A stretch of DNA of 49,774 nt from Atractiella rhizophila (taxonomy: Eukaryota). This document shows, piece after piece, positions 1,395-37,369 of this stretch. The stretch covers positions 62,001-111,774 of the forward strand of contig MU271271.1 of assembly GCA_021432655.1 (NCBI GenBank), written 5' to 3'. Below the pieces are notes generated by a model. It made no database searches, was not told the origin of the DNA, and saw nothing but the letters and a program-made list of their open reading frames with translations. The position numbers and the translations under genes were made by a program. How positions within the stretch are numbered: the stretch's first letter is position 1; the number at the start of each line of letters is the position of its first letter.

Positions 1395-3156
1395 TTATGC
1401 TTTCTCCTTCTCCTCCCCAGGCTCCCAAATTCCTAACCCGTCCGTCCTTGCATACTTTGCCATCGTTCTCCTCGCAATCGCAATCTCCTCCTGGCTCCAC
1501 TCTCCAAAGAATAAACGAACCCCAAGGTGATGGTTCAGCTTCCTCCCATCTTCCCGATCACCGCTCTCAGCTCCCCTCACCTGCCAATCCCCAAAGAACC
1601 AGCGGATGAAGTCCAAGAAATCAAGTGAGTACAAAACACAGTACCGGAGTGTTATCCGGTATATCTCCGTTGCATTTTTAAGGGTGCTGAAGAACTCGCG
1701 GGAAATGAGGTTTGACGTTTCCTCGCCCCCGTCAAGGAACAGCTCGGTGAGCCGTGTGAGGTGTGACAAGTCGAACGGAGTGCGTAGGATGGAGGTCTTT
1801 CCATCAGCAGAGAAGGGGGCGAGCACGAGTGTGAGATGTTCCAGAAGAGGTGGCAGAGGATGATCTGAGATGGAGGAAGGGAGAGGACATAGATCGGAGA
1901 GATACAGGTAGCGGAGGGTTTGTGGGAGAGAGTGTGACGAAAGAAGCATGTACTTGTAGAGATCTAGGTATTCAAGGCGAGATGAGAAGTGAAGACCCGC
2001 TGAGGTTGAAACGGGACAGTCCTCCACGTTGTCAACTTTGAGCCAATTGATCCTGTCACCCATCCTCCGCGTAAAGTTCTCGATTTCCTCCCTCTTCCAC
2101 TTTCTTGAACCACTTCCAAACATAACGTCATCAACCCGTTTCAGGCCTTCAATTGCATTCAACACAATCTTCGCATCCTGTTCACTCCAAAATGCATCCA
2201 TCCGCACCATCATTACACCTGGCGAGCCTGCAATGACCTCTTTTGCCATGCCAACATCCATGCTTTTGTCCAACATCAGTCTGTCCCACAGTCGTCCCGC
2301 ACCAGGATAGCATGTCAACCGGGAATACTTTCCTGCCACAGAATCAGGTTCACCCCAATAAGGAGCTGAAACTTCCCTCCAGAGCTTGCAAATGTTAGAA
2401 ACAGTGGAAGCATCTTCGGAGAAACTAAATATGAGAGAGAGGAGTTCCACAGGCAAGCACGAGATGGAGCATGGAATAACGTCTGGAGGTGGGACAGAGA
2501 GTTGGATGATGCTGACTGTTCGTAGGGGCAATGACGATTCATCCTCACCGATGGGAAGGAAACGGTCTTCATGTTCGGAGTATGAGGCAATGGGGGCAAA
2601 TATGGCATTCTCGCGAAAGAAAGGAAATGTGCGAGTATATGGATCGTGATATGAAGCAAGCGGGTTGACCCCCGATTTGACATCTCTGTCCACAGTCGAC
2701 ACATGCCCTTCAATATCCAGAAGGGCTACTGAAACATTTTCGGTGCTCATAGTAATGTGAAGATTGATCGCGCCATCCTTGTCGAGAACATTTTTGACCT
2801 GTTCAAGTGATAAATAAGACAATTTTGATGACATCTCTACAAGTTCCCACCTCCCCAATGATGGCGATAAGGCAAACGAAATCTGGAGCGTGTGAATTGA
2901 TGCAGGTAGGTGACGTAGAAAAGATGGAAGAATGGAGAGGTGGATCGAATTGCTGGAGTCGTGCGGGGTGATAACATGGACTGATGCCGTCGAGTTTGGT
3001 ATCTGGTCAAGGCCAGACGTTTGCGGCTCTGGGAGAAAAGAGTCATCAGACTAGACCCCAAAACACACGTTAGATGATAATAGGAAATCGCAGGTGGAGA
3101 TGAAATCATGCCTGAGTCACATCATCAGGTGCCAACCACCTCCTCACCCTTCGCAT
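1395..3156 (-). CDS. F-box / LRR-like protein of a lineage-expanded family
   Basis: The 487-aa ORF frame stays open upstream to an acceptor at 3051 (CTAAC...CTAG). Predicted first exon is ATG CGA AGG at 3156-3148 with donor GTGAGG. F-box motif ISCLPVELLSLIFSF...ICKLWREV is followed by LxxLxL repeats (LEYLDL, LRYLYL, LEHLTL, LTELFL). Shares GGEE-x-LIS and FFxEW motifs with 33621-35384. Confidence 0.75.
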
Positions 3157-4289
3157 CTTGACGTGATGGAAACGCAATGAAGATTGACAAAAAGTTGAAC
3201 TGAGGTCCCAAACTGTGCGCTGTGCTACCACCTTGATGAACAATTCGTGGGAGAATCTAGCAGAATGAAATAGCGATGGATCACTTCGTTTTTGAGGGAT
3301 GGATGTGCTTTGTACGACTTTTTACTCTATTTGATGTGGAGACGTCAGACGTCAAGGAACGTCAGAGAGGAAGTCATGTTGGGCAAAAGAATGCTCTGTG
3401 AATGAATGAAGGGATTCAAACGGAGTATGTGGGGATCGTACCAAGGACATTGCTGCTAAACAAGATGGAATCAATATAATGCTTGTTCGGTTTGAAGGGC
3501 GGGCGTTCATACCCGCAGCCTTAAATTGCGGTTTAATACTCCCCCTTTCTCTTCCCATGCCGCAAAGACGAGGCGAGTTAGTTCACAAATCGTTTGGGGG
3601 AGCAGGCAAGAAGAAGATGAAAACCGTGGTCATTCCCTGGCGGATAGATCGCTTGTGGAGGACAAAAGGTAGGTGACATCGAGACACTCGGAGTCAGTCG
3701 GCTGAGTGAATATTGGTTCGAATGGAGGAGAAAACTTCGTTGGGTTTTAATTTTGAGAGAGGTGCGTACGCAAGATAATAAGAGCTTGAATAACTCACCA
3801 ATGACATTGGGAATTGGTCCTCCTTCGTTGTGCGCTTTCTGCCCTTCTGCTTCCGCGTCAGCCGCTCATCACTCGCCGCTTCCCTGCTACATTCCTCCAT
3901 CACACCGATCCCTCAGTTTTCTTCATTCGCCTCCTGGCTCCGGTGTCCTACCCACCCAGACGGAGAGTAACACTCATCTTTCCCGTTTCCCCACTTCCGT
4001 CTTTCCTCTCTTAAGCGAGTAAGCGAGAAAACGGGCCAGGATATTTAGGCATCCATGTTGCCCTAGTCTCAGAGGGCGGTCGTTCATCCAAGGAGAGGAG
4101 GAAGGACGCGTCCAATTGAGGCAGCTCTAAAATGATATTCACCCTCATCAAGGCGGGAAACGATGCTGTCGCTCGAAGGGAAATAAGCATATCATTCGCG
4201 CCTACTAGGGGTAAGGAACAATCAGCTACATCCAGAGGTTCTTGTGAAGGACGAGAGAGAATGAACTATTTGAGCCTGTTCGCAAACAG

Positions 4290-4826
4290 TATAACCCGAG
4301 CTTGGACCTGGCACGGATCCAAACGGGGGATGAGCCGATAAGGGAGCAAGCGGACTGTGAATTGATAAGGCTAAAAACACATAGTTGCATAAGATAATAG
4401 GAATACCATAAGACTTAAGGAAGCATACCTAAAAACACCCAAACTAGTCGCACGTCTAACGGGTGCGAACAGAGTCAAGTAGCAGTATCTCTGTGACAGA
4501 AATAAGCGACAAGAATGTGGACTAAGAAGGCCTAAGCCTACCTTCTAGTCCGGGTGCTCTTATACGATAACAGGGGCTCACGAAAGGGGGAATAGTAAGG
4601 GACCTGAAGAGTGCCCATTGGCATAAGTAAGATGTAAGAAAGTAAAGGGCTACTCACCTCGCACACTACAACAATGCGTAACGATTAAAAGACGCTACGA
4701 GTAAAGACAGATGGTGGTTGTGTGCGAGGGAGAAATGACTGAGACAGATTGGAAATTGAACACGGAATCAGATAAGTACTTCAACGTAAACATTGCACAT
4801 TATCAATACTTCTAACCCGTATTACA
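4290..4826 (-). repeat. 3' LTR (537 bp)
   Basis: Direct repeat of 10388-10923 with 4 substitutions and 1 indel. Minus-strand ends read TGTAATACGGG...CTCGGGTTATA. Confidence 0.97.
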
Positions 4827-4840
4827 CCCTCCCCCCTTTT
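4827..4840 (-). other. Polypurine tract (PPT)
   Basis: AAAAGGGGGGAGGG directly abuts the TG start of the 3' LTR on the minus strand. Confidence 0.93.
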
Positions 4841-4879
4841 AGAACCGAAGCGTCCCGCGAGGTTGGGTGTAATGAATCT

Positions 4880-7800
4880 CTAATTCTTCCTCCTTGCTCG
4901 TCCCTTTCTCTTGACTCTCATCCTCGCCATAAATTCGTCTAGGAGTTCCTGGCAGTTGGTGAGGTTCTCTTTGGGCTCCCAAGTCGCTTCCGAATGATGT
5001 TCTCCTGCCCAATGAACAAGATATTTGTTGCCCTTGACCTCGAGGATTTGTTGGACTTCTTGTTCTTCATCTTCTTCGAGGATTTGGGGGGCGGGGACGG
5101 CGTGACTTCGACGGGAGCGGAGAGAGTTGGAGGTAGAGGGGGAGATCCAAGGCTTGAGGAGGGAGGAATGGAAGACCGGATGGATGCGTGACATCGAGTC
5201 GGGGAGAGTGAGCCTGAAAGCGACCGGAGAGACGACCTTCTCGATTCTGAACGGTCCGACCCACAGGTCGTCAAGTTTGCGTGAGGGGCGGCGTAATTTG
5301 AGGTTTCTCGTCGACAACCAGACATAGTCGCCTTCGTTGAAATCTGAATGTCCTCTTTTCTTGTCTGCGTGCTCCGTTTGACGCTCTTGCGCGAGCTTGA
5401 TCTCCTTTTTGACCTTTGTGTGGAGGTCCTGTAGCCGGTTGAAAAGGGACTCTGCCTTTGGATTGATGGCTTCGCCAGCGTATGAGGAAGGGAACCGTGG
5501 GTGGTACGCGTAGTTGAGGAAGAAGGGAGTTTCGTTGGTAGTGGCTGAAGGGGAGTTGTTGAGTGCGAATTCTGCGAGCGGTAGGAGTTCTTCCCAGTCA
5601 TCTTGGTTGTAGGAAATGTAGGCACGAAGGACTTGTTCGAGCGTGCGGTTCGTCCGCTCTGTCTGGCCGTCCGTTTGCGGATGATACGCCGTCGACATCT
5701 TCAAGTCCGTTCGGAATCGCCGGAAGAGCTCCTGCCAAAAGGCGGAGGTGAATTTGACGTCGCGGTCAGAGACGATTGAGGAAGGAACTCCATGCAACTT
5801 AATGCAATGGAGGAAGAGGCCGGCAACCTGCTCCGCTGTGTTGTCCTTGCGACAGGGCAGCAGGTGTACCATCTTCGTGAATCGATCCACGACGACGAGG
5901 ATAGAGTCGTGGGCAAGCGTAGTGAGTGGGAGGTCCGTTATAAAGTCCATGGAGACTGATTCCCATGGCACATTAGGGACCGGGAGCGGCTGCAGCTTTC
6001 CTCTCGGCTTCTCGTTCGCTGGTTTCGTCCTCGCGCAAGTGGCGCACAAGGCACACCAGTCTCGACAGAAGTTGCTGATGTCGGGGAAGAAGAAGTCGCG
6101 TGTGACGAGGTTGTAAGTTCTATCTTGCCCGAAATGTCCTCCAAGCGCTGAATCATGACGCTCCTGAAGGATCTTCCTTCGCAGCTCGGTAGTTGGTATA
6201 ACGAGACGAGTTTTGTTTTTGTATAGTACTCCTTTTTCACTGAAAGCGATACCTCGAAGCTGAGAAGACACTGATCGGGTACGAGGGAGAGTTGGGTCGC
6301 GCAGAAAGGGGAGCAAGGGTGCCAACCATGCATCCTTTTCGTAGCTTGTCACACACTCCTGGATTAGTGGGGTACTGAGGGTGGAGACACTGAGGTTTGA
6401 GAGAGAAACCACTGATTGATTCCCTACTGCCGAAGTACAGGAACCGGGTAACGAGCGCAAGGCGGAGAGGTAGAACGCCGGGTTTCGAGAGAGCGCATCG
6501 GGTACCGAGTTTTGGGCCCCTGGAATGTATTGAATCTCGAAATTGTACGTTGAGAGAACCTCGTTCCACCGAGCTTGTCTACGAGATAAGTTCGGTTGAG
6601 TTTGGAAGTAACGGAGTGAGTGGTGGTCGGTTAGGATTGTGAAATGTGGGAGACCTTCAAGGTAGTGTCTCCAGGTCTTCAACGCATGTACGACTGCCAG
6701 CATTTCCTTCTCGTGTACCGTGTAGCGTACTTCTGCACCGCGCAGTTTGCGAGATTCGAAGGCAACAGGTTGCCACTTGCCTGTGTCTTCGAATTCTTGC
6801 TCTATTACTGCTCCGATAGCGAAGTCGGAAGCATCAGATGCGACACGAGTTGGGAGCGAGGGGTCGTAAACTCGCAGGAAGGGAGCGGAGGTGTATGAGT
6901 TTTTGAGCGAGTCGAATGCTTCCTGCTGGGGGGAAGACCATTCGAACGGTTGCTCCTTGCGGAGGAGGCTTGTGAGAGGAGTGACGATGGCAGAGTAGCC
7001 TCTGATGAACCTTCGGTAGTAGTTGGCGAGTCCGAGGAAGCTCTGGAGCTCACGGACATTTGATGGTGCCTTCCACTCCTGGATCGCACTGAGTTTCTTC
7101 GGGTCCATCGATATTCCTTTGTCAGAAACGATGTGACCTAAGAACTCGGTCTCCGTCACCCAGAACTCGCATTTCTTGGGTGAGGCAATGAGCTTGTTCT
7201 CGCGGAGTGCCTGCAGTACCAAGCGAATGTGCTCCGCGTGCTCCTCAGGCGTCTTGGAGAAGATGAGGATGTCGTCCAAGTAGACCACTACGAAGAGATC
7301 GAGGTATGGGCGGAGGACTTTGTTCATCAACGCTTGAAAGGTTGCAGGAGCGTTGGTGAGCCCGAACGGCATGACAAGGGACTCGTAGAGTCCATATCGG
7401 GTCTTGAACGCCGTTTTGTGAATCGAGTCTGGATGGATAGGAACTTGATTATAACCTTTGGTTAAATCAATCTTGCTGAAGAGCTTGGCTCCCACAAGCC
7501 TATCCAAACAGTCGTCGATTCGTGGAAGGGGAAAGCGATTCTTGATCGTTTGCTGGTTGAGCGCACGGAAATCATGACAGAGTCGCAGAGAACCGTCTTT
7601 CTTGGGAACGAAGAGGACAGGAGCACCATAAGGTGAGTCTGACGGACGAATCCTACCTGCTTCGACTTCTTCCTGCAACCAAGCTTTCAGAGTGGCCAGC
7701 TCTGATGGGGAGTTGCGGTAGAGGGGTCGATTAGGAGGTGAAGAGCCCGGGAGCTCGTGAATTTCGTGAGACACTCCACGGTCAACGACACCGCGAGGTA

Positions 7801-8911
7801 AGTCGGACGAGAAGACGTCCCGAAATTCGTTGAGGACCTCTTTCAGCGCGGTAACTTCCGTATTGAAGATGGAAGGCTGAGGAGTGGTGCCACACTCCTC
7901 CTCGTCGCGGGTGGAGGGACGGACCATTGCAAGGAACACTTTCGTGCTCTTCTTCCTTGCAGCACGTTTGAGAGCGAGGGAACTGATCAGATGGACGTTT
8001 GAGTGAGATTTAGGTCGATGCGCATCGGGAGGGGGTTCTGATCGCTGTTCCGAGGTCCAAAGGCGAAGTTGATCACGTAAGGGGAGACGAAGCGATGCGA
8101 TTCTACACTTGCTTCTCCTAGCGAAGTAGTGTTTCGGCGGAGCTGGTGTCCTGTGTACGCGAGTGGTACTTGCAGCCGGTAGAACGGACGACGAATCACT
8201 GAGAGGAGATGTTGGAGTTGGGTTTGGCTTGATTGGACATAGGGCTTCCAGTCCAAGCCAACCCAGGAGCCAAGGGACAAGACCTTTTGACTCCTGCTCC
8301 GGGAGCTGTGCTTCGGATGTAGTGGGTAGGAAGGAGTGGTCTGGGAGATACTCCGTGCCCGGACGCGACGAAAGGGTGTTCTTTCGAAAGTCGACGACAG
8401 GGTTGAAGATAGCAGACCATTTCTTTCCAATCACCACATCCGCGTGTGCAATTGACAACACACTAAGTCTCACGTTGGATGACTTGAAGACACCATCGAC
8501 TCCGGGAACTAGGAGCGATGAGGCTTCAATGTAGTGAGTTATGAGGGAACCAGGTTTCCCCTCCATCCCTTCGGTTCGGATCGCTTCTTCGTAGGGATGG
8601 AGCGGCAGGTTGGAACGTTGGCAGAAAAGGGGGTCGACTAATGCGACTGCGTCGCCTAAGCAGCCAGAGTCGTGGAAGATCGAGGCGGGACAGTCGTTGA
8701 GCGTTCCTTTCACGACTATTTGATCTTCCCAATCCGTCCCGAAAGAGTTGATGTAGATCTGGCGTTGACACTCTTTCTTGGGACGGGGACTCGATGCAGA
8801 GAGCTTAATCGAGTCCGAGGAGCCCTGCTCCTCCCCGGACGCCTCTATTTTTTCCGATTGGACGACCCGCGAGTATTCGGGCAGTCTTGATCCTTCGGAT
8901 GGGCCCCGCAA
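4880..8911 (-). CDS. pol: Pol polyprotein (protease, RT, RNase H, integrase, chromodomain), expressed by frameshift from gag
   Basis: Protease [20 protein letters not shown] and [13 protein letters not shown]; RNase [13 protein letters not shown]...EKEMLAV; integrase HDSALGGH...[24 protein letters not shown] module WVGPFRI...[11 protein letters not shown]; chromodomain [21 protein letters not shown]. Confidence 0.97.
8813..8854 (-). promoter_or_regulatory. Probable -1 ribosomal frameshift signal
   Basis: Pol is in the -1 frame relative to gag. Gag ends CGG AAA AAA TAG, and 7 nt after the A-run comes the hairpin GTCC-GGG-GAGGAGC-AGG-GCTCCTC-GGAC. Confidence 0.7.
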
Positions 8912-10305
8912 TAGCCACAGAGGTTGTTGACACGACGTCGCTCTTTCTCTGCAGCCGTGAGGTGTCCATCAGCATCGAGGTGTTCTGGTTTGGGAGGGGC
9001 GGTTGCATTTGAGTTGGACTTCGATTTCGTTGCCGGGGAGACGTTTGTGGAGGGTTTCTCCTTTGTAGCGTTCAAAGTCGAGGTCTTCGCTCCCAGCTCT
9101 GTCTTGCCTGTTTTGGATTTGCTCGACATCGCGAGGTCGAATGCAATAGCCTTGTTCGTCAACTCCACCCAGTCGAGGTCGAGGTAGTGAGGAATTTTTG
9201 CAATCTCGACCCGGACGGATTCCTTCAGGCTCTTCATGAAGAGGTGTTTCAGGAAGAAGTCACGAAAGTCCGGTGGGTTGATGGAGGAGGCTTGAATGTT
9301 GAAGTCGGCGACGAACTTGTTGACAGGGGTGTCAGATTCGTTCTTGAGTGCAAGGAGCTTATCCATATCGATAGAGAGCTGCTGTTCTCCTCCTAATCTG
9401 GCACGGATGAATTCCTCTGCCTGTTCCAGGCTTTGGAAGGGGTATTGCTCCGTGCTATCTACTCCAAGTGTTGTCTCCTCCGACTCCACCATATCCGCTG
9501 CCCGTCCGCGTAGGTTGTGGATGAACAGCCCTACTCGTCGCTCTTCAGAAGCATACTTGTGAGGGTAGCTTCGAATAATGGAACGGATCTCGCGTTGGAA
9601 GTCCTTGAACTTCCCGAAATCTTCTCCAGTAAACGGCTTACGAACCGTGTCGAGGGTAAACTCGCGCTCACTGAGGGCTCGTGCGAGCATGACCTCAGCC
9701 GGGTCGACAGAGGGGAGACGGGAGGAGGCAGCTCTGGGTAATGGGGCTGGGGAGCATGAAACTCTCGGTCGGATAGCTTCTGCTTCTTCCGCAATGGATC
9801 TCACCAGTCCTGGAGGGAGGATAGGCCAGGGAGGTGATGAACGAGGTAGGAGGAGGGAGAAGGGAGCCGGCGTGAGGAACCGGATAGTGCGGTACACCCA
9901 CCCCCGACAGAAGACAACCCAGAGGAGGGCAAGGAAGAGCATCACCTCCAAGAGGTTCCGCACCTTCCCTGTCCATCCTTGGAGCTGCTCCGCTAGCATG
10001 TGCCAGAACAGAGCGGTCATCGTCAGCGTGGGTTGCATGGTGGTGGACGAGGGTGGTGAGGTCGGCATGGATGCCGGAGGGGCCGTGATCGTCGTATCTG
10101 TTGAGAACTGAGCCGAAAACCACGAGCTGAATGGCGTGGACCATGGGGAGAGGGTGAAGGCGTTGAAAGGTGCTTGTAATGCGTCACCCATAGCGTCGAA
10201 AAAATTGAATGTCGCAGCGGCAGCTTGTGTCGTTACGCGAATCCCACGATATGAGAACGATGTAAAGCGGGAGGCGAGACGAAAGAGCTGGAACAGCCCT
10301 GACAT
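8845..10305 (-). CDS. gag: Gag with long N-terminal extension and transmembrane segment
   Basis: First ATG after the PBS is at 10305. Capsid-like [14 protein letters not shown]...LRGRAADM and [18 protein letters not shown]-terminal knuckle [14 protein letters not shown] is preceded by the typical [12 protein letters not shown]. Confidence 0.9.
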
Positions 10306-10372
10306 GTGCGCCGTTGGCGGCAGGTGTAGTAGTGTGAAGTACGAGGTTGGAAGGGAAGGTTGAACCGAAGAA

Positions 10373-10385
10373 GCTCTCGCTACCA
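10373..10385 (-). other. Primer-binding site, initiator tRNA-Met type
   Basis: TGGTAGCGAGAGC starts 2 nt after the 5' LTR. TGG-T-A matches CCA, A73 and U72 of eukaryotic initiator tRNA-Met. Confidence 0.8.
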
Positions 10386-10387
10386 GA

Positions 10388-10923
10388 TATAACCCGAGCT
10401 TGGACCTGGCACGGATCCAAACGGGGGTGAGCCGATAAGGGGGCAAGCGGACCGTGAATTGATAAGGCTAAAAACACATAGTTGCATAAGATAATAGGAA
10501 TACCATAAGACATAAGGAAGCATACCTAAAAACACCCAAACTAGTCGCACGTCAAACGGGTGCGAACAGAGTCAAGTAGCAGTATCTCTGTGACAGAAAT
10601 AAGCGACAAGAATGTGGACTAAGAAGGCCTAAGCCTACCTTCTAGTCCGGGTGCTCTTATACGATAACAGGGGCTCACGAAAGGGGGAATAGTAAGGGAC
10701 CTGAAGAGTGCCCATTGGCATAAGTAAGATGTAAGAAAGTAAAGGGCTACTCACCTCGCACACTACAACAATGCGTAACGATTAAAAGACGCTACGAGTA
10801 AAGACAGATGGTGGTTGTGTGCGAGGGAGAAATGACTGAGACAGATTGGAAATTGAACACGGAATCAGATAAGTACTTCAACGTAAACATTGCACATTAT
10901 CAATACTTCTAACCCGTATTACA
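10388..10923 (-). repeat. 5' LTR (536 bp)
   Basis: Direct repeat of 4290-4826. Contains a TATAAG on the minus strand near 10660. Confidence 0.97.
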
Positions 10924-11548
10924 CCACCTCCAGACGGAAAGATGAACAGGTGTGAGAATGTCGGTGAGGCTCAGTGGCGATAAGCTACCCAAATCTCCTC
11001 CACTCCTAAGTGGAAGGGATAGTAGTAGCAGTTCCGATCGCCTTCGGATAGTCCGCTCGTCGAGCGTCTGAGTACAGCTGCCGTCATCAACCTCAACTCG
11101 TCTTGGGAAACGAAGGCATACAAGGGATGGTTTCGTCTTTTGATACTCTCGTCGTACGAGAGATGTGAAAATTCTGTGGGCAGCCAGCACTGCTGACAGA
11201 AAGTGCGAGTTGTCTCCATTTGGATATGGCAGCAGAGCGTCGACAATGCCACATATCCTGCTCCATCGCATCGACCACCCTTCTCGGCCTGAGGATTGCG
11301 GGTTGTGTTCGGTCCGGTCAAACACTCAGAGGAGAGTCAGAAGGTCGACGGACCCTTGCTAAAACAGAAGAGAGAAGTCATCCAAACACGGTAAACTAAT
11401 AAACATGGAAGATGAGAGGAAGAAACAATGGTTCAAAGTAGATCAACGGTCTGACAGAACACTGAGGAGAGGAAGATGAAAGAGAGTGATAGTACTATCG
11501 AGAAAAGACAGTAATGGTGATGATGTACAGAGTCGCTTGCATGTACGA

Positions 11549-26175: not shown

Positions 26176-28010
26176 TCAGGACGCGCGTTCCCAGTACTGC
26201 CTCTCCTTCTCCTTCTCCAGCACTTCTTTCGTATACAACCTGCTGTCACGACTATCGACCTCAAGGATGACGGGGAGCGTCCCTCCACCTATGGAACGGT
26301 TCCCCAGATTCGAGCTGACGGAGGACTTATTTGGAAGGTGATGAAGAGGGATCTCGGATCGCTGTTGAACACTCGAACCGAAAGAATTTTGCGCCGCTGT
26401 AAAGGAGTACGTCGGGTTATCGCCGCCTCCACCTCCTCCCCCTGGTTTGCTTGCCGACCTCTGCGAATCCTGCTCTTGTTGATCTTTGACATTCTGTACA
26501 CCAAGCAAACCCATCCATTCAGCAAAATGTGAGAAGAGAGAAGGGAGGAGAAAGAGCGCACGAGGACAAGCTTCGAGCTCATCACACTCGTGAGTAGTGT
26601 GACAGCAGGCGCGTGGAGAGCATTGTTGGAGACAACCTTGGAAGGTAGTACAAACCAACAAAAGTTTAACAAGTTGCACGAAAACACGATTATGAAGTAG
26701 AGGATTCCGTCCCTACTAGCAGGTTAACTCCGCGCATAATCGTGACGGAGAGGATTGTAGACCTGAGAATTAGACGCAGGAGAGGCATGGAGCCGCCACG
26801 ACGAAAGTAGCGCATGATTGGTCTATAGCGACCTTTATCAGCCGGACAAGCGAGGCCACACTGGTGTTATGAGAGTCAGGGACGGACATGATGGTCAGCA
26901 AAAGCAGCTCGCTTCGCCAATGTCACACTGTGAGCTTTAGGAGCGTTGAGATGAATCGATGTACGTATCATATAGCAGCGCAGCAAGCCCTTCCAACCTC
27001 TCATCAGCTACCTCAATAAACGAAATAAAATAGTCACAATAAGGTATCCTGAATCCTCCCTTTCCTCCATTTGATATACACCCAACCTCTCCATCGGGTA
27101 TAAAGATCGGAACGTCAGTACGGAAACAGACGATCTGCACTGCGACTGTGGTGATTCCAGTGAAAAGTCTAGCATGTTCTCTTTAGTGGCTAATATGGAG
27201 CGATAAACAAAGGCCAACATCAGGATTCCGATTCGACACTCCTGATCCCACATCTGAACACAATACGTCAGCTGACCGTGGTGATGATAATGCTAGATAG
27301 ACGACAGAGACAAACCGCCCATGCTCGCATTCCAAGGATGGTCCATGCACATACTTCGAAAGTAGTGATGAGGTTTAATTAGTTTTAGGGTAAAAAAAGC
27401 ACACTGTACAGTATGAGCTATGAAACCAGTTAACGGTGTAATGTAGCTAGCCAATGAAAAGGCGCACAGCTCCAATTGGCTCTAGGAAGTGGATTTTGTC
27501 GCAGACATCCTTTGGCACATCACTCCAGAAAAGGATGACGAGGAAAATCTGTGATGTTGAAGAATTAGTCCAAGTTCACACAATATGGGAAGAGCTAGAA
27601 GTTACAAAGAAGATTAATCCGAAGTGTCGATTCACTAGGAAAGCGACTCGCATCGCACTCCACTGCCAGGGAGCTTTCCTGCAACAGGACATAGCTTCTT
27701 AGCACAGCGTCATATACAGAATTAAGAAGATGATAGAAAGAGGAAGGTCGCACCATATCTGGCCATACTCTCGTGGCAAGGTTTGACTTTCAGCGCGGAC
27801 TTGAGTCAACCCGACCTCATTGGGAGGAACGCACAGATATTCCCAGAAATATATCCCTGGCCCGTAGTTCGTTAGCACTTGGTCAAGAAATTGGAGAAAG
27901 GGAGCAACGATACCAGCACAGGCAGCAGTGTACGCTCGAGACTGCTCTAACACCCGCTTGAGTTGCGCGAATTCGCCTTCGCTCAGCACCAGTGTAGAAG
28001 TTGAAGACAT
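26176..28010 (-). CDS. DUF6533-type multi-pass membrane protein, paralog A
   Basis: Spliced GIYFWEYLQTLPREYGQIWKAPWQWSAMRVAFLVNRHFGL (DUF6533-like signature) and LLRLILRDGILYFIIVF. Many small exons. Confidence 0.8.
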
Positions 28011-29160: not shown

Positions 29161-30900
29161 CTATGAGCGCTCCCACCATTGTCTCTGCGTCTCCTTCTCC
29201 AGCACTTCCTCCATATAAAACCTGCTGCTACGACTGTCCGCCTCCTGAATAACCGAGAGCTTCCCTCCACCAGTAGAAACGCTTCCCAGGTTTGAACTCA
29301 CGGAGCTTTTGTTTGATAAGCGATGAAGAGGTATCTCAGATGGCTTTTGAAGACCTGGACCGAAAGAGTTGTGGGCCGCTGTAAAGGAATAACTGGGGTT
29401 TTGAACTGATCCTGCTCCTTGTTTGCTTGCAGACCTCTGCGAATCCTGCTCTTCTTGATCTTTAACATTCTGAGCGGCGACCGCATCGATCAGCTTCTCT
29501 TCATCAAAAATTGGAAAGAGGGAGAAGAACGCACGAGCACTAGTCTCGAGCTCATCACCGCCGTCAGCAATGAGACTGCGGGAGCATGGAGAGAATGGTT
29601 GGAGACGATTTTGGACGGTAGGGCGAACCAAATGAAATTTAGCAGGTTGACTGAGAACACGACACCGAAGTAGAGGAGTCCGTCACGAAGGATGAGACGC
29701 AAGAGAGGCATAGAGCCGCCATGGCGAATGTAGCGGATGATCGGTCTAAGGTGATCAATTTATCAGACCAAGGGCCAGTTCGTGTAACGGGAAGGACGGA
29801 CATAATGGTCAGGAAAAGAAGTCCACTTTTGTATGTAAGAGAATGATCAATGACCTTCAGTTTGTGTGGAGAGAAACAGATTTACGTATCGAAAAACAAC
29901 GGAGCGAGCCCTACTCATTTCATCAGCTGCTTCGTGTGGCACAAAGAGGATAGTCACAATAAGGTATTCTGTATGCCCTCTCCCCTCCATTTGATATGCA
30001 ACCGAATTCTCCAACCGGTACAAAGACTGGGATGCTAGTGCGGAGGCACACGATCTCCACTACGACTGTGGTGACGCCAGTCAAAAGTCTGACATTTCAC
30101 CATGTTAGATGACGTTACGGAGCAAAGGCAGAGACCGACATCAGGATTCCGATTCGGCGCTCCTGATCCCACATCTGAAACATGTCAGTCGACTAACATT
30201 AGGCGGAAGATGAGCTTGGGAGACAAACCGCCCACGCTCGCTGCCCTAGAATCGTCGATGCGCATACTTCGGAACACCAATGAATTTATTCCTCCAGTTA
30301 GAAGAACGAGAGCGGCGCACTGTACAATATGAGCTACGAGTGGCGAAATTGACTCAGGACGTAGTTCTTCTGATAGTACAAGAGACGTACACCTCCGACT
30401 GGCTCCAGGAAGTGGATTTTTTCACATTTCTCGCGTGGTACGTCAGTCCAGAACATAGTAATGAGGAGAACCTGTCGGAATTGACATTGAACCGAGTTCA
30501 AGCAAACGTAGAGGAGCTGGAATTTACGAAGAAAAGCAATCCAAAGTGTCGATTTACAAGGAAGGCGACGCGCGTCATTGTCCACTGCCATGGAGCTTTC
30601 CTAGTTATAGATATCATATGCGGAAGAGGCTCTCAGATAGAAGGACTCCGCACCATATCTGCCTATACTCTCGAGGAAAGGTTTGACTTGAATCGGGAAG
30701 CTCAGTAAGCTTAACCCCGTTGCTCCAGAAGTAAGACTCACAGATAATCCCAGAAATAAATCCCTTGTCCAAGTCAACTAGCACTCCATAATGAAGGGAG
30801 GGAACGTACCAGCACAGGCAGCAGCATACGCTCGAGATTGATCTAAGACTCGCTTCAGGTGCGCAAGTTCGCCTTCACTGAGCTCCGGTGTGAGAGACAT
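29161..30900 (-). CDS. DUF6533-type multi-pass membrane protein, paralog B (tandem duplicate)
   Basis: MSLTPELSEGELAHLKRVLDQSRAYAAACAG...LLRLILRDGLLYFGVVF...EEVLEKETQRQWWERS*, colinear with paralog A. Confidence 0.8.
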
Positions 30901-31679: not shown

Positions 31680-33391
31680 TCATTCCCAAGAGTCATAATC
31701 AAACCTCTCCGGCCAAATCACGGGGGCAATGAGGGTCCATCCATAGATGAGAAGACAGAACCAAGAGCTGACAATGCGAATCCACATCGCGACCGTGCTC
31801 CTGCCAATCTTAATCCATCCTCCATCGTCAGGAGTCTGAGTCTTCGACACGACGTTCCAATCTGTGAGGAGCATGGCGATGTACATCGCCGCCATGGCGA
31901 AGATGATGTGGAACCAAGCATAGTTGTACCTCGTTCCAGTCCTCTCATCATCACGTTCATCCCCTCCTCCCAATCCTTCGTCCTTGTCATCATCCTCATC
32001 GTGCTCCTCCAATGCGGACGCGGGCAGGGAACCTGCAGCAACAGCTGCCACGAGAGCATCGCGCTTGGTCGGTTGCTTATTGACCACTCCGAGCTCCCCT
32101 CCATGGGTCGTTCCACCTTCGGCATCATCGGCAGAAGGACCAGTGGGCAGCTTGGTGTAACCTCCGTCCCTTTCATATCCTCCTTTATTCTTCCCTGCCA
32201 ACGCTTTACTCTGCGTAGCCGCTCTTGACGTCGAGTATGCGATGGCGAGGAAAGTAAATATTGCTCCCAGGAGCACCAAGGACTGCCGCGCTCCGTCCGC
32301 TCTCTTGCTAAGGGGATTGCAGACTGGGTCGTTCCGGTTCGCCAACGCAGAAGTGACGAGATAAGTGCAGTAGGCGAGAACCATGCCGCTTTGAGAGAGA
32401 CCAGATTTGTAGTTTGCCTCTTGGACGACTGGGAGGACACAGAGTACAGAGAGTACTATGGAGAGGAGGAAATTGAAGGTCACAAAGAATTGATTGAGGT
32501 GGCAGGAGCCGGAGGCGAAGTAGATGTAGTCGAGGATGGTCAACGTGAGGGAGAAGGCGTAAGCTAACAAGGTTGAACCGATCAAAACCGTCTTCCAGAA
32601 GGTGGAGTCAGTTTCTTGCCAGTTCTCGAGACACTTCTCGCTCCATGAGTGCGCAAAATCGACCAGAAGGACAAGGCCGATGAGTATGAAGACTGTCGCA
32701 CCTACAGGTGCAACATAGTTCCCCCAGAAGATAAAGAAGCCGTTGGGGATGAAGAAAGAAATGACGACGAGAACGATCCAGGCTGCAATCTTGGGACCCC
32801 ACCAGCTTTTGAACACAATCACCGTCTGTAAGCTTTTATGGAAATGGCACGCACCCATTCTGAATCTCCGCACGCTTAGTTCGCGTGTCATGAACGTCAA
32901 CGAGCGAAGCCGAGAGGATGAGATGGAAGACAGCGAGAGCAAAGCAAAATCGGTGGACCTATCCAACAGACCAACTGTCAACACCATGTCCCATTTCGCT
33001 TTTGACAACGGAGAATTAACTCACTGCAAGAACACCATAACACGTACCCCCCTCACAATTCATCTTGATATAATCATAACTCCACTTCTCAATCTGCCTT
33101 ACAGCCCATGGCGTAAGCATGATCCAAGCTACCACAGAGTTGAGGAGCATGATCAAGCTGAACCCAACACGGGTAGCAACTGAAGAATTGCAGTTGCATG
33201 ATTTACAGAAAGCTGTGGCCTAAACAAAGTGCATAGACATTAGCAATTCAGTCAACCCCTGGAAGGACAGAATGGTGGCTTACGGCTTTGGATGTACAGA
33301 AAAAGGTAAGACCTGCAATGCAGGAGCTGAACAAGGTAGTCAGCAGCCCGCCAGCGGTGCCTAGCAGTGGAAGAGATAGGAAAGCACCCAT
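31680..33391 (-). CDS. TMS1: Serine incorporator (Serinc/TDE/TMS1) membrane protein
   Basis: MGAFLSLP...CKSCNCNSSVATR...CYGVLAVHRFCFAL...IQNGWWGPK...LVDFAHSWSE...YNYAWFHIIF...WTLIAPVIWPERF. 3 introns. Confidence 0.95.
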
Positions 33392-35423: not shown

Positions 35424-37369
35424 CTAGCATCTAGTTGACACTCCACCGAACATCCACTTATACGCCTCTCCCACACCATCCTCGTTGCCAACTACTGTCC
35501 CCGTCAGTTTACAAACCCATAAGGTCCCCATCCCCGCGGTATGAACCTGGACGACAGGTTTGTTCTCCGCCGTCCTAACATGAACACTCTCCACGCACAT
35601 GCTAGGTTCGAGAAAAAGGGCAATGTGACGTCCCTCACCCTGAAGCTCGACCGTCTTCCGCGATGCTCGCCTCAAGGCTCCTTTCGCCATTGGGAGCCCA
35701 TGATAAGGATTTGATGAAGCGTGGCTAGCCTGCTGGACTAACGACTGAAAACTTCCTGAGATTGAGTTAGGGCATGAGGAAGAGAGGACCACGGATCTTG
35801 CTACCTCGAACTCAACGGTGCCATAAATGGGGAGTCGGGAGAGATAAAATTTGGAGATCCCATGGGGATAGCTTTCCGGGTCTGAAGTTTGCACAAACTC
35901 GAGGAGGTCCCGCCCCGTATTTGACTCCAGCTGGTCGACATAGGTTCGCCAGTCTCCTCGAAGTTCAACTCTGCCCTTTCGGTCCGACAGTTTTTCTTTC
36001 CTCCTCAGTTGCCGTTCCCCAATCACCTCTCCCGTCTTCTCAACTACCCAGTGACTCGTTCCATCCTCGAGTTCTATCAACGCAATTCCTCCACCGCAGA
36101 TTCTAGCGGAGTAAATTTTTACAGTCATGCTCCTCAATAGCTCGTCATCTCCACTAGCCGCCTTACGAATCTGAAACAGAGGGTTGGAGATGGATAACGA
36201 GAAGTAGGTGTACAACCTCTTGAGGGTGAACCGTAAGGAGACGAGAAGGTTTTCGACAACGCTGGTATCGCATGATGGTGTGAATATGTTGGATAGCACT
36301 CCATCACGTCGATGCGACGATGATGATGGACGAATGTTCCCAATGAAGGAATCCAGCCAAGCGTATGAGGCAACCAGGTCAGCGGTACTCGGGTTGAACA
36401 CTGAAGAAGTAGGAGGGTCTGTCTTTGGAGTTATCGGCCGATTGGATGACGGTCGGAGAGGAACGAAGGTCTTCAACGGACGTCCCGTAACATCAATCGT
36501 CTTAGCAATAGCGACAGTTTTAGAAGACGTGATCGAAGTCGAAATTCTCCCTCCTTCCTTTGAAACTTGTGAACGAGGAGGGTTGCCAGCTGCGCGACTT
36601 TTCGTTGATGGCGCCAGTCTAGAAAATGTCCACCTCCCGTTTTCATGCCTTGTGGATCCTACGCTGGCTTTGGACACGGCACTGGGCTTTGGTTCTGTGA
36701 CGGGTGCGTTCTGGGGTTGATTCGACCGAGGTTTCAAAGGGCTGACCATAGACTGCTGGGTAGATGCCGATTTGGCAGAGAGTGACGTGGGGGTATCGCT
36801 GATGATTGCCGCTGGTCCGCAAGAATGGATCTGTGCTTTCGTCGCCGTTGGAATTTGCCTCAGGGACGCTACGGCGCCGTCTTGCTCTCCGGTTTGAGAG
36901 ACTGTTAGAGTTTTCTCAGAAGTTGGACCGCCGTCCGCTGGCGCAGCGATGGCAATGCCACAATGGTTGATCAAACTTTTGTTGAGGTTTCCATCGACTC
37001 CCGTTTCTTCTCTTCTACTCAACGAAGCTTCTTCCGCTCCTGATGAGACTTGGGTATGACTCTTCTTCAGTTTCTTCGCCACTGATACATGGTATTTTAG
37101 ATACAGACGGGCTGGCCAGCGGGAAAGAGACAACCAACCGTGGGTTACTCCAATATCCGCGTCTGCACTCCGTTTCTTCAAAGGCTCTCCAGCGTCGTGT
37201 CTTTGGAGTCTCTCTACTAGATCTCCTTTCTTCCCAGAAACAGGAAGGCCACGCTCTTTCAGGATGACCTTTAATTCAGGACTGGGATGATAGGGCAAGA
37301 AAGTGACTGGGAATCACGTTGGAGGATCTCAAAGACTCACATTTTAAGTTTGGCATATTCCATAGGCAT
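35424..37369 (-). CDS. SAP-domain protein with low-complexity middle and unknown C-terminal domain
   Basis: Exon 1 MPMEYAKLK, intron 37282-37340, then IPELKVILKERGLPVSGKKGDLVERL (SAP consensus). Confidence 0.85.

Follow-up and report, generated by a model that had tools for sequence, protein, structure and literature searches.

An Atractiella rhizophila chromovirus whose Gag carries a selected N-terminal extension with a predicted membrane anchor

The Gag protein of a Ty3/gypsy chromovirus from Atractiella rhizophila carries, in frame and ahead of its capsid domain, an extension that combines a basic N-terminus with a strongly hydrophobic helix. Sequence evidence shows the feature to be genuine, under selection and transcribed, and its membrane role is predicted. 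The reading that we favour, the case for which we regard as evenly balanced, is that Gag is anchored in an endomembrane with its capsid in the cytosol and works like mouse IAP Gag. To our knowledge Ty3/gypsy Gags are generally regarded as soluble and as lacking a matrix domain. The window analysed is a stretch of 49,774 nucleotides (assembly GCA_021432655.1, contig MU271271.1, positions 62,001 to 111,774 of the forward strand), and coordinates without a prefix refer to it; all features of the element are on its minus strand.

The element

The element extends from LTR to LTR at window 4290-10924. The 5' LTR (10388..10924, with TG...TA ends) and the 3' LTR (4290..4826) are both 537 bp, and their alignment shows 4 substitutions and 2 gap columns, which marks the copy as young; it is also intact. 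The primer-binding site (10372..10385) has 14 nt of complementarity to the 3' end of tRNA-Met with its CCA, and the partner is a tRNA-Met gene of the same genome (L056:1500-1580) with features of the initiator type. The CAT anticodon of this gene is split by a very short intron directly 3' of the anticodon, and ARAGORN reports the gene as unassigned. A self-priming site, judged by eye, was dropped once the matching tRNA gene turned up. The polypurine tract is at 4827..4840.

The gag gene (8845..10305, ATG at 10305 and stop at 8847-8845) encodes 486 aa (P0003) and overlaps the pol frame (4880..8968, 1362 aa), which has a protease-like DSG motif, reverse transcriptase (RT), RNase H, integrase and a chromodomain. 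Pfam gives the order RT-RNase H-integrase, as in Ty3/gypsy, with chromodomain PF00385 C-terminal to integrase (aa 1312-1348, E 3.9e-11). The 3' LTR begins only about 50 bp beyond the pol stop, and there is thus no env ORF in the element. The LTR pair, primer-binding site, polypurine tract, pol domain order, chromodomain and Ty3-type capsid together place it among the Ty3/gypsy chromoviruses. The nearest Pol proteins are 59-62% identical, with none closer than about 62% among the 120 matches listed.

A candidate -1 frameshift site lies at the gag stop (8848..8854), reading G AAA AAA here and A AAA AAC in a sister family described below; as both families have a slippery run at this place, Gag-Pol would also bear the anchor. 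The G/C-rich stretch directly 3' of the gag stop (8844-8805) is conserved between the families and is likely to be a frameshift-stimulating structure. The long protease-RT spacer of both families retains an Arg-rich block and a moderately hydrophobic helix (WLLGWLGL or LMLGWLGL; pol aa 228-246, window about 8290-8230), which at 4.36 on the crude insertion scale used below is not of transmembrane grade.

Organisation of Gag and its hydrophobic helix

The first 36 residues (10198..10305) form a basic and presequence-like N-terminus, predicted to be a strongly amphipathic helix, with 4 Arg and 0 Asp/Glu, a hydrophobic moment of up to 0.73 and a conserved YRG(I/L)R motif. They overlap a second predicted helix at aa 28-44 (10174..10224) with the conserved pattern TxxAxxxTFxxxDxxGD. 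A stalk rich in Ser, Thr and Pro follows at aa 51-95 (10021..10155), these residues making up 64% of it here and 47% in the sister. An amphipathic helix at aa 95-117 (9955..10023) then leads into the hydrophobic core at aa 118-133 (9907..9954), a helix of membrane grade with a WVVFC end that is conserved in the sister family. C-terminal to the helix is a basic and aromatic flank, aa 134-152 (9850..9906), with 3 Arg in the 15 residues after the helix, and then a Pro-rich linker, aa 145-220 (9646..9873), in which WPI(L/I)P and F-x-LD are conserved. The linker joins a Ty3/PEG10-type capsid domain at aa 221-400 (9106..9645), and a variant zinc knuckle, C-x2-C-x2-H-x5-C, is at 8881..8919.

The initial annotation had described four parts ahead of the capsid, and all of them (basic N-terminus, Ser/Thr/Pro stretch, hydrophobic helix with basic flank, and Pro-rich linker) are present. 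It had also drawn attention to an extension of about 200 aa: the helix and the basic N-terminus are indeed unusual, but the length itself is ordinary, since the pre-capsid region is at least 150 aa in 17 of 89 capsid-matching Gags (median 102 aa).

With regard to the helix, the most hydrophobic 19-mer in Gag is aa 115-133 (Kyte-Doolittle 2.05). A crude insertion scale gives the core at aa 118-133 a score of -0.60 and the best helix of a Serinc protein in the same window -0.70, and 28 of 2000 shuffles of the extension matched the score of the core. Scoring was by hydropathy scales with no trained transmembrane predictor, so that membrane grade here means by these scales, and the insertion scale also put two non-Gag ORFs of other elements (L041, L047) below zero. 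The core is short, at 16-17 residues, with Glu120 near its start. Cys133 is conserved in both families and is a putative palmitoylation site.

A sister family and selection on the extension

The genome contains a second family (G000:C65, L026:4830-6290, protein P0254). Its Gag is intact, also 486 aa long and without stops; it is 40% identical over residues 3-481 and retains every part of the extension. Motifs kept in both include a run beginning YRG(I/L) and WPI(L/I)P. The sister helix remains hydrophobic despite substitutions, scoring -0.32 (matched by 49 of 2000 shuffles) as against -0.60 here. Over aa 1-165 the two families are identical at 83, 106 and 45 of 162 codon positions 1, 2 and 3 respectively (position 2 versus 3, Fisher p=1.4e-11), and a DNA-guided control alignment gave the same pattern (77/164, 107/165 and 57/164). 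In comparison with the sister family, pS is 0.75 and pN 0.45 in the extension, and 0.78 and 0.37 in the capsid; because pS is saturated dN/dS cannot be quantified. The remaining two frames over the extension have stops in both families. It is clear from these comparisons, which rest on two families of one genome, that the extension is under selection as protein. The initial annotation had looked to stops or frameshifts in related copies as a sign against it, and the sister extension is intact. C135, a third copy, belongs to the sister family but has decayed: its frame changes both behind the helix and within the capsid, and the decay is uninformative on the extension specifically.

The same data bear on where translation starts. 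A start downstream of the helix, for example at MLARAL, had been considered at the outset, but this Met is not conserved in the sister, which ruled it out. The sister has no Met at all in residues 86-307, which leaves no conserved AUG start downstream; the conserved alternative AUGs are all upstream of the helix. If scanning were leaky, initiation at one of the following AUGs (39-103 here; 52 and 85 in the sister) would still yield a product containing it. The start codons of both families have a pyrimidine at -3 and thus a weak context, as might be expected if the extension were an untranslated or neutral pyrimidine-rich leader that is open by chance; with the strong codon-position bias, the stops in other frames and the want of a conserved downstream AUG, we find this hardly credible.

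Transcripts and leader introns

Two sequencing runs were used. Run X1, recorded as RNA, gave small pieces only (share 0.09) and is not taken as evidence of habitat or expression. The library type of run X2 is not on record, but it has GT..AG joints, one of them common to X1. A 5619-nt X2 contig spans 4799-10417 with 26 differences and no gap, and since it runs unbroken through gag the main form carries the extension unspliced. Among the 8 gag differences listed, 5 are silent and none makes a stop. None of the 4 joints listed would excise the extension, although contigs lose rare forms.

Three introns are placed in the 5' LTR leader, two of them supported by RNA and one predicted (10754-10468, with the same positions in the 3' LTR), and their signals are conserved in the sister LTR. 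Intron 1 (10701..10754, 54 nt, GTGAGT...CAG) contains 2 AUGs and is predicted only; its donor is conserved in the sister LTR, and none of the 4 joints listed matches it. Intron 2 (10588..10638, 51 nt, GT...AG) corresponds to X2 joint 4490-10639, and intron 3 (10468..10525, 58 nt, GTATGC...TAG, 5 AUGs) to X2 joint 10467-4429, both converted to 5' LTR coordinates; the joints may derive from other LTR copies. A further joint, 10702-10800, is non-canonical. The introns are near the 3' end of the LTR and would be expected to be lost on copying of spliced RNA, yet they persist.

All 7 AUGs in 10840-10306 fall inside introns 1 and 3, so that with the three introns removed 10305 would be the first AUG; 2 leader AUGs are left if only the RNA-supported introns are removed. 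This first-AUG status is conditional, as the transcription start is unmapped and unspliced contigs are also present, and the LTR has two further AUGs within its first 35 bp. In the sister the five leader AUGs behind a conserved LTR block fall in equivalent introns (coordinates read by hand).

Insertion sites and neighbouring sequences

Clear 5-bp target site duplications were found at 3 of the 7 solo LTRs examined. There is none at this copy (GGTGG/CTGTT, 10925-10929 versus 4285-4289) and none at the C65 copy (L026:4234-4238 versus L027:3040-3044), the pol of which is interrupted by host-like sequence. The missing duplications and the interrupted pol suggest recombination or assembly joins at the LTRs. 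A search for a flank representing the empty site gave no match.

Just upstream of the element, both X1 and X2 show splicing of a GT..AG intron (window 11068-11121) in a minus-strand transcript, and the element may lie within a host gene or at its end. Host ORFs identified by Pfam are F-box-like (1395-3050, just below cut-off), Serinc (31680-33020) and SAP (35424-37313). A tandem duplication of about 2.9 kb (26185-27995 versus 29167-30891, 72-90% identity in pieces) is probably a duplicated host gene. Another gypsy family in the genome (L041:8426-9041, in reversed orientation; also L036, L040 and L046) has an ORF of about 200 aa beyond the end of pol, which in L041 includes a very hydrophobic stretch; as the copies differ there it may be non-coding.

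Capsid identification and structural models

Gag on its own has no Pfam match, and the sister Gag matches PF03732/PF19259. PF03732 (Retrotrans_gag) is matched by 84 of 91 aligned proteins, the sister among them; this alignment includes 89 of 130 non-self hits, picked for long capsid matches. The Gag family profile matches PEG10 at 4e-20 and Ty3 Gag at 4e-15. The Gag model resembles retroviral-type capsid folds, and three viral Gag models reached E 0.001; no PDB structure matched it at that level. An AlphaFold model from 2 sequences was unusable (mean pLDDT 37). The model from 91 sequences predicts one continuous helix at aa 95-144, with the hydrophobic core inside this 50-residue helix, but just 2 rows of the alignment are truly homologous over the extension and confidence there is suspect.

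Distribution

The initial annotation had left room for membrane-spanning Gags being the norm in this clade, and among the relatives compared the helix is absent. None of the 130 capsid-matching non-self hits has a comparable one (best score 2.49 versus -0.60). Within the genome, Gag-like ORFs at 20 loci from the top of 123 RT matches, which represent about four other families as judged by eye, have no such helix.

The extension is equally restricted in our searches. A word-indexed protein search with Gag found only itself, and among longer proteins only the two families align over the extension. With HMMER over cluster representatives the best stretches of non-self matches start at residue 147 or later; P0004 is the match to the decayed C135 copy. 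Metagenome scans and viral-contig scans found no relatives of the extension, and the ESM Atlas gave no usable feature match, with structure TM-scores by query of 0.42 or below. These searches outside the genome are weak negatives, and several depend on exact short words. Capture of the extension from a host gene was considered, but a genome search with aa 1-202 gave element copies only. In the titles, abstracts and passages of openly accessible papers we found no description of a membrane-spanning fungal Ty3/gypsy Gag, and the available portions of PMC13524379, PMC3758190 and PMC6466679 have nothing bearing on it.

A proposed model for membrane-tethered Gag

In the model that we favour the element would make tethered Gag and, by the -1 frameshift, tethered Gag-Pol. 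Splicing of the leader would strip the upstream AUGs to give translation from 10305. The helix at 118-133 would act as an internal signal-anchor, most likely in the ER or nuclear envelope, placing the 117-aa N-terminus in the lumen with capsid and nucleocapsid in the cytosol. The N-out/C-in topology proposed in the initial annotation accords with the flanking charges: these are +2-1 before the helix and +3 after it in this Gag, and -5 and +3 at the corresponding places in the sister, and they favour the capsid on the cytosolic side in both families. Gag would then collect RNA and assemble on the membrane. In such shells Gag N-termini point outward, and for this reason the particle would either bud lumenally or need release by protease: it may acquire a membrane coat by budding into the lumen, in the manner of IAP particles, or the protease may cut the linker to free it, the conserved F-x-LD directly ahead of the capsid being a candidate site. 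The extension would thus be a functional stand-in for the retroviral matrix domain.

The model draws support from the intact and selected Gag in two families, the RNA-like contig that spans gag, and the splicing of two LTR introns. Against it, the core is short and embedded in a predicted 50-residue helix, and neither family has an N-glycosylation sequon ahead of the helix. The 117-aa net-basic N-terminus would have to cross the membrane without a signal peptide, which is not a usual route, and it is equally presequence-like.

This last property leads to an alternative that we consider unlikely but worth keeping in view, a bipartite mitochondrial signal with residues 1 to about 30 as presequence and helix 118-133 as a stop-transfer or arrest sequence. 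Such a signal would retain Gag at the mitochondrial envelope and, should import stall, leave its capsid in the cytosol; the PINK1-like layout offers a parallel for arrested import. Over the first 30 residues the net charge here is +4, with no acidic residue and a hydrophobic moment of 0.73; the sister values are +3, 1 and 0.53, and the corresponding cut-offs are passed by only 1 of 89 related Gags. The sequence R-x-(F/L/I)-x-x-(T/S/G), which we take to be a presequence processing motif, is kept as RGIRVT here and RGLRAT in the sister. However it is by crude descriptors only that the N-terminus is net positive, acid-poor, amphipathic and provided with an Arg motif, and basic amphipathic N-terminal helices bind other membranes too. 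The sister has Asp6, full import would part the capsid from its RNA, and residues 18-41 are conserved beyond the level usual for presequences. We are similarly doubtful that the helix does not span the membrane at all, aa 95-152 being a monotopic or surface anchor (ER or lipid droplet) or a bundle that oligomerises Gag, with both ends cytosolic and the helix derived from an ordinary pre-capsid helix of Ty3/gypsy Gags. The single continuous helix predicted at 95-144, the short core, the milder pre-capsid helices of related Gags and one heptad register with hydrophobic residues at 12 of its 15 positions, here and in the sister alike, are consistent with this. Yet the heptad count comes largely from the hydrophobic core itself, and that core scores as a true transmembrane helix, far from all 130 relatives.

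It is very improbable that the N-terminus of Gag is a built-in envelope substitute, exposed on the outside of budded particles with stalk-borne amphipathic helices that would help them to re-enter the cytosol or nucleus by fusion, or to reach a different compartment or hypha. The element has no env ORF, and the order of parts (amphipathic helix, stalk, membrane-proximal helix, transmembrane helix, Cys, basic flank) resembles that of sORF2/FAST proteins as given in the available text of 10.1101/2025.03.14.642691. The parallel with FAST-type fusogens drawn in the initial annotation fails, however, on the criteria in that text: neither protein has MGxxxS/T (they start MSG here and MPF in the sister), and the ectodomain is 117 aa here and 120 aa in the sister rather than 10-50 aa. 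On a further criterion, at least 3 Lys/Arg in the 15 aa after the transmembrane helix, the families differ, with 3 here and 2 in the sister. No relative was found in other genomes and there is thus no sign of spread, and nothing was found in favour of the movement between nuclei or hyphae suggested in the initial annotation. The related idea that Gag is its own envelope, with particles budding into the ER or perinuclear lumen under a coat of Gag ectodomains and then fusing out without an env gene to enter the nucleus, a further compartment or a different hypha, seems to us improbable.

If the anchor is confirmed, membrane targeting of Gag would have arisen here independently, in a fungal parallel to IAP; such targeting is the step that parts retrotransposon particles from budding retroviruses. 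The anchor would also offer a compact module with which to ask where the particles of fungal retrotransposons assemble and by what route they come to hyphal nuclei. Its narrow distribution, with two families in one genome, and the predicted nature of the membrane anchoring limit the weight of this.

Comparison with known systems

In MLV glyco-Gag a membrane anchor likewise extends Gag at its N-terminus, but that protein is a minor type II glycoprotein that starts at a CUG and accompanies normal Gag. In the present element the anchored form appears to be the sole conserved AUG product, and the charge bias suggests that it is oriented the opposite way. Among fungal chromoviruses, Gags of the Retrotrans_gag/Ty3_capsid/DUF4939 type are alike in capsid and zinc-knuckle region, but lack a membrane-grade helix (0/130), and in nine sequences viewed the pre-capsid region was mostly acidic or Pro-rich.

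The plant Athila and Tekay elements are also Ty3/gypsy elements that encode transmembrane proteins but, in the available text of PMC11728184, these are separate additional ORFs outside Gag. The sORF2/FAST-like proteins of the Drosophila MDG1 group are single-pass N-out modules, amphipathic and basic, upstream of the capsid in Ty3/gypsy elements that are also without env (10.1101/2025.03.14.642691, available text). In the same text sORF2 is a separate ORF of 63-107 aa (criterion 60-210 aa) and mostly myristoylated, whereas the module described here is fused in frame to the capsid in a protein of 486 aa, without MGxxxS/T and with a 117-aa ectodomain.

Ty1 of S. cerevisiae is another fungal LTR retrotransposon with ER-linked assembly: its Gag uses SRP, and assembly is nucleated at the ER (PMC3945221, available text). 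Ty1 is copia-type, however, and according to that text its Gag, in which no signal or transmembrane domain is discernible, is soluble when it enters the lumen. Mouse IAP is a betaretrovirus-derived ERV with its signal at the N-terminus of Gag, whereas here in a chromovirus the helix is internal (aa 118-133) and is preceded by a 117-aa basic and Ser/Thr/Pro-rich segment, and no sequence relation is expected. The likeness is in organisation, as IAP (IAPEz) is also an env-less LTR element with an in-frame membrane-targeting segment at the front of Gag (10.1101/2022.06.22.497016; PMC3945221, available text of both), and in IAP the loss of env went together with the gain of an ER signal at the N-terminus of Gag (10.1101/2022.06.22.497016, available text).
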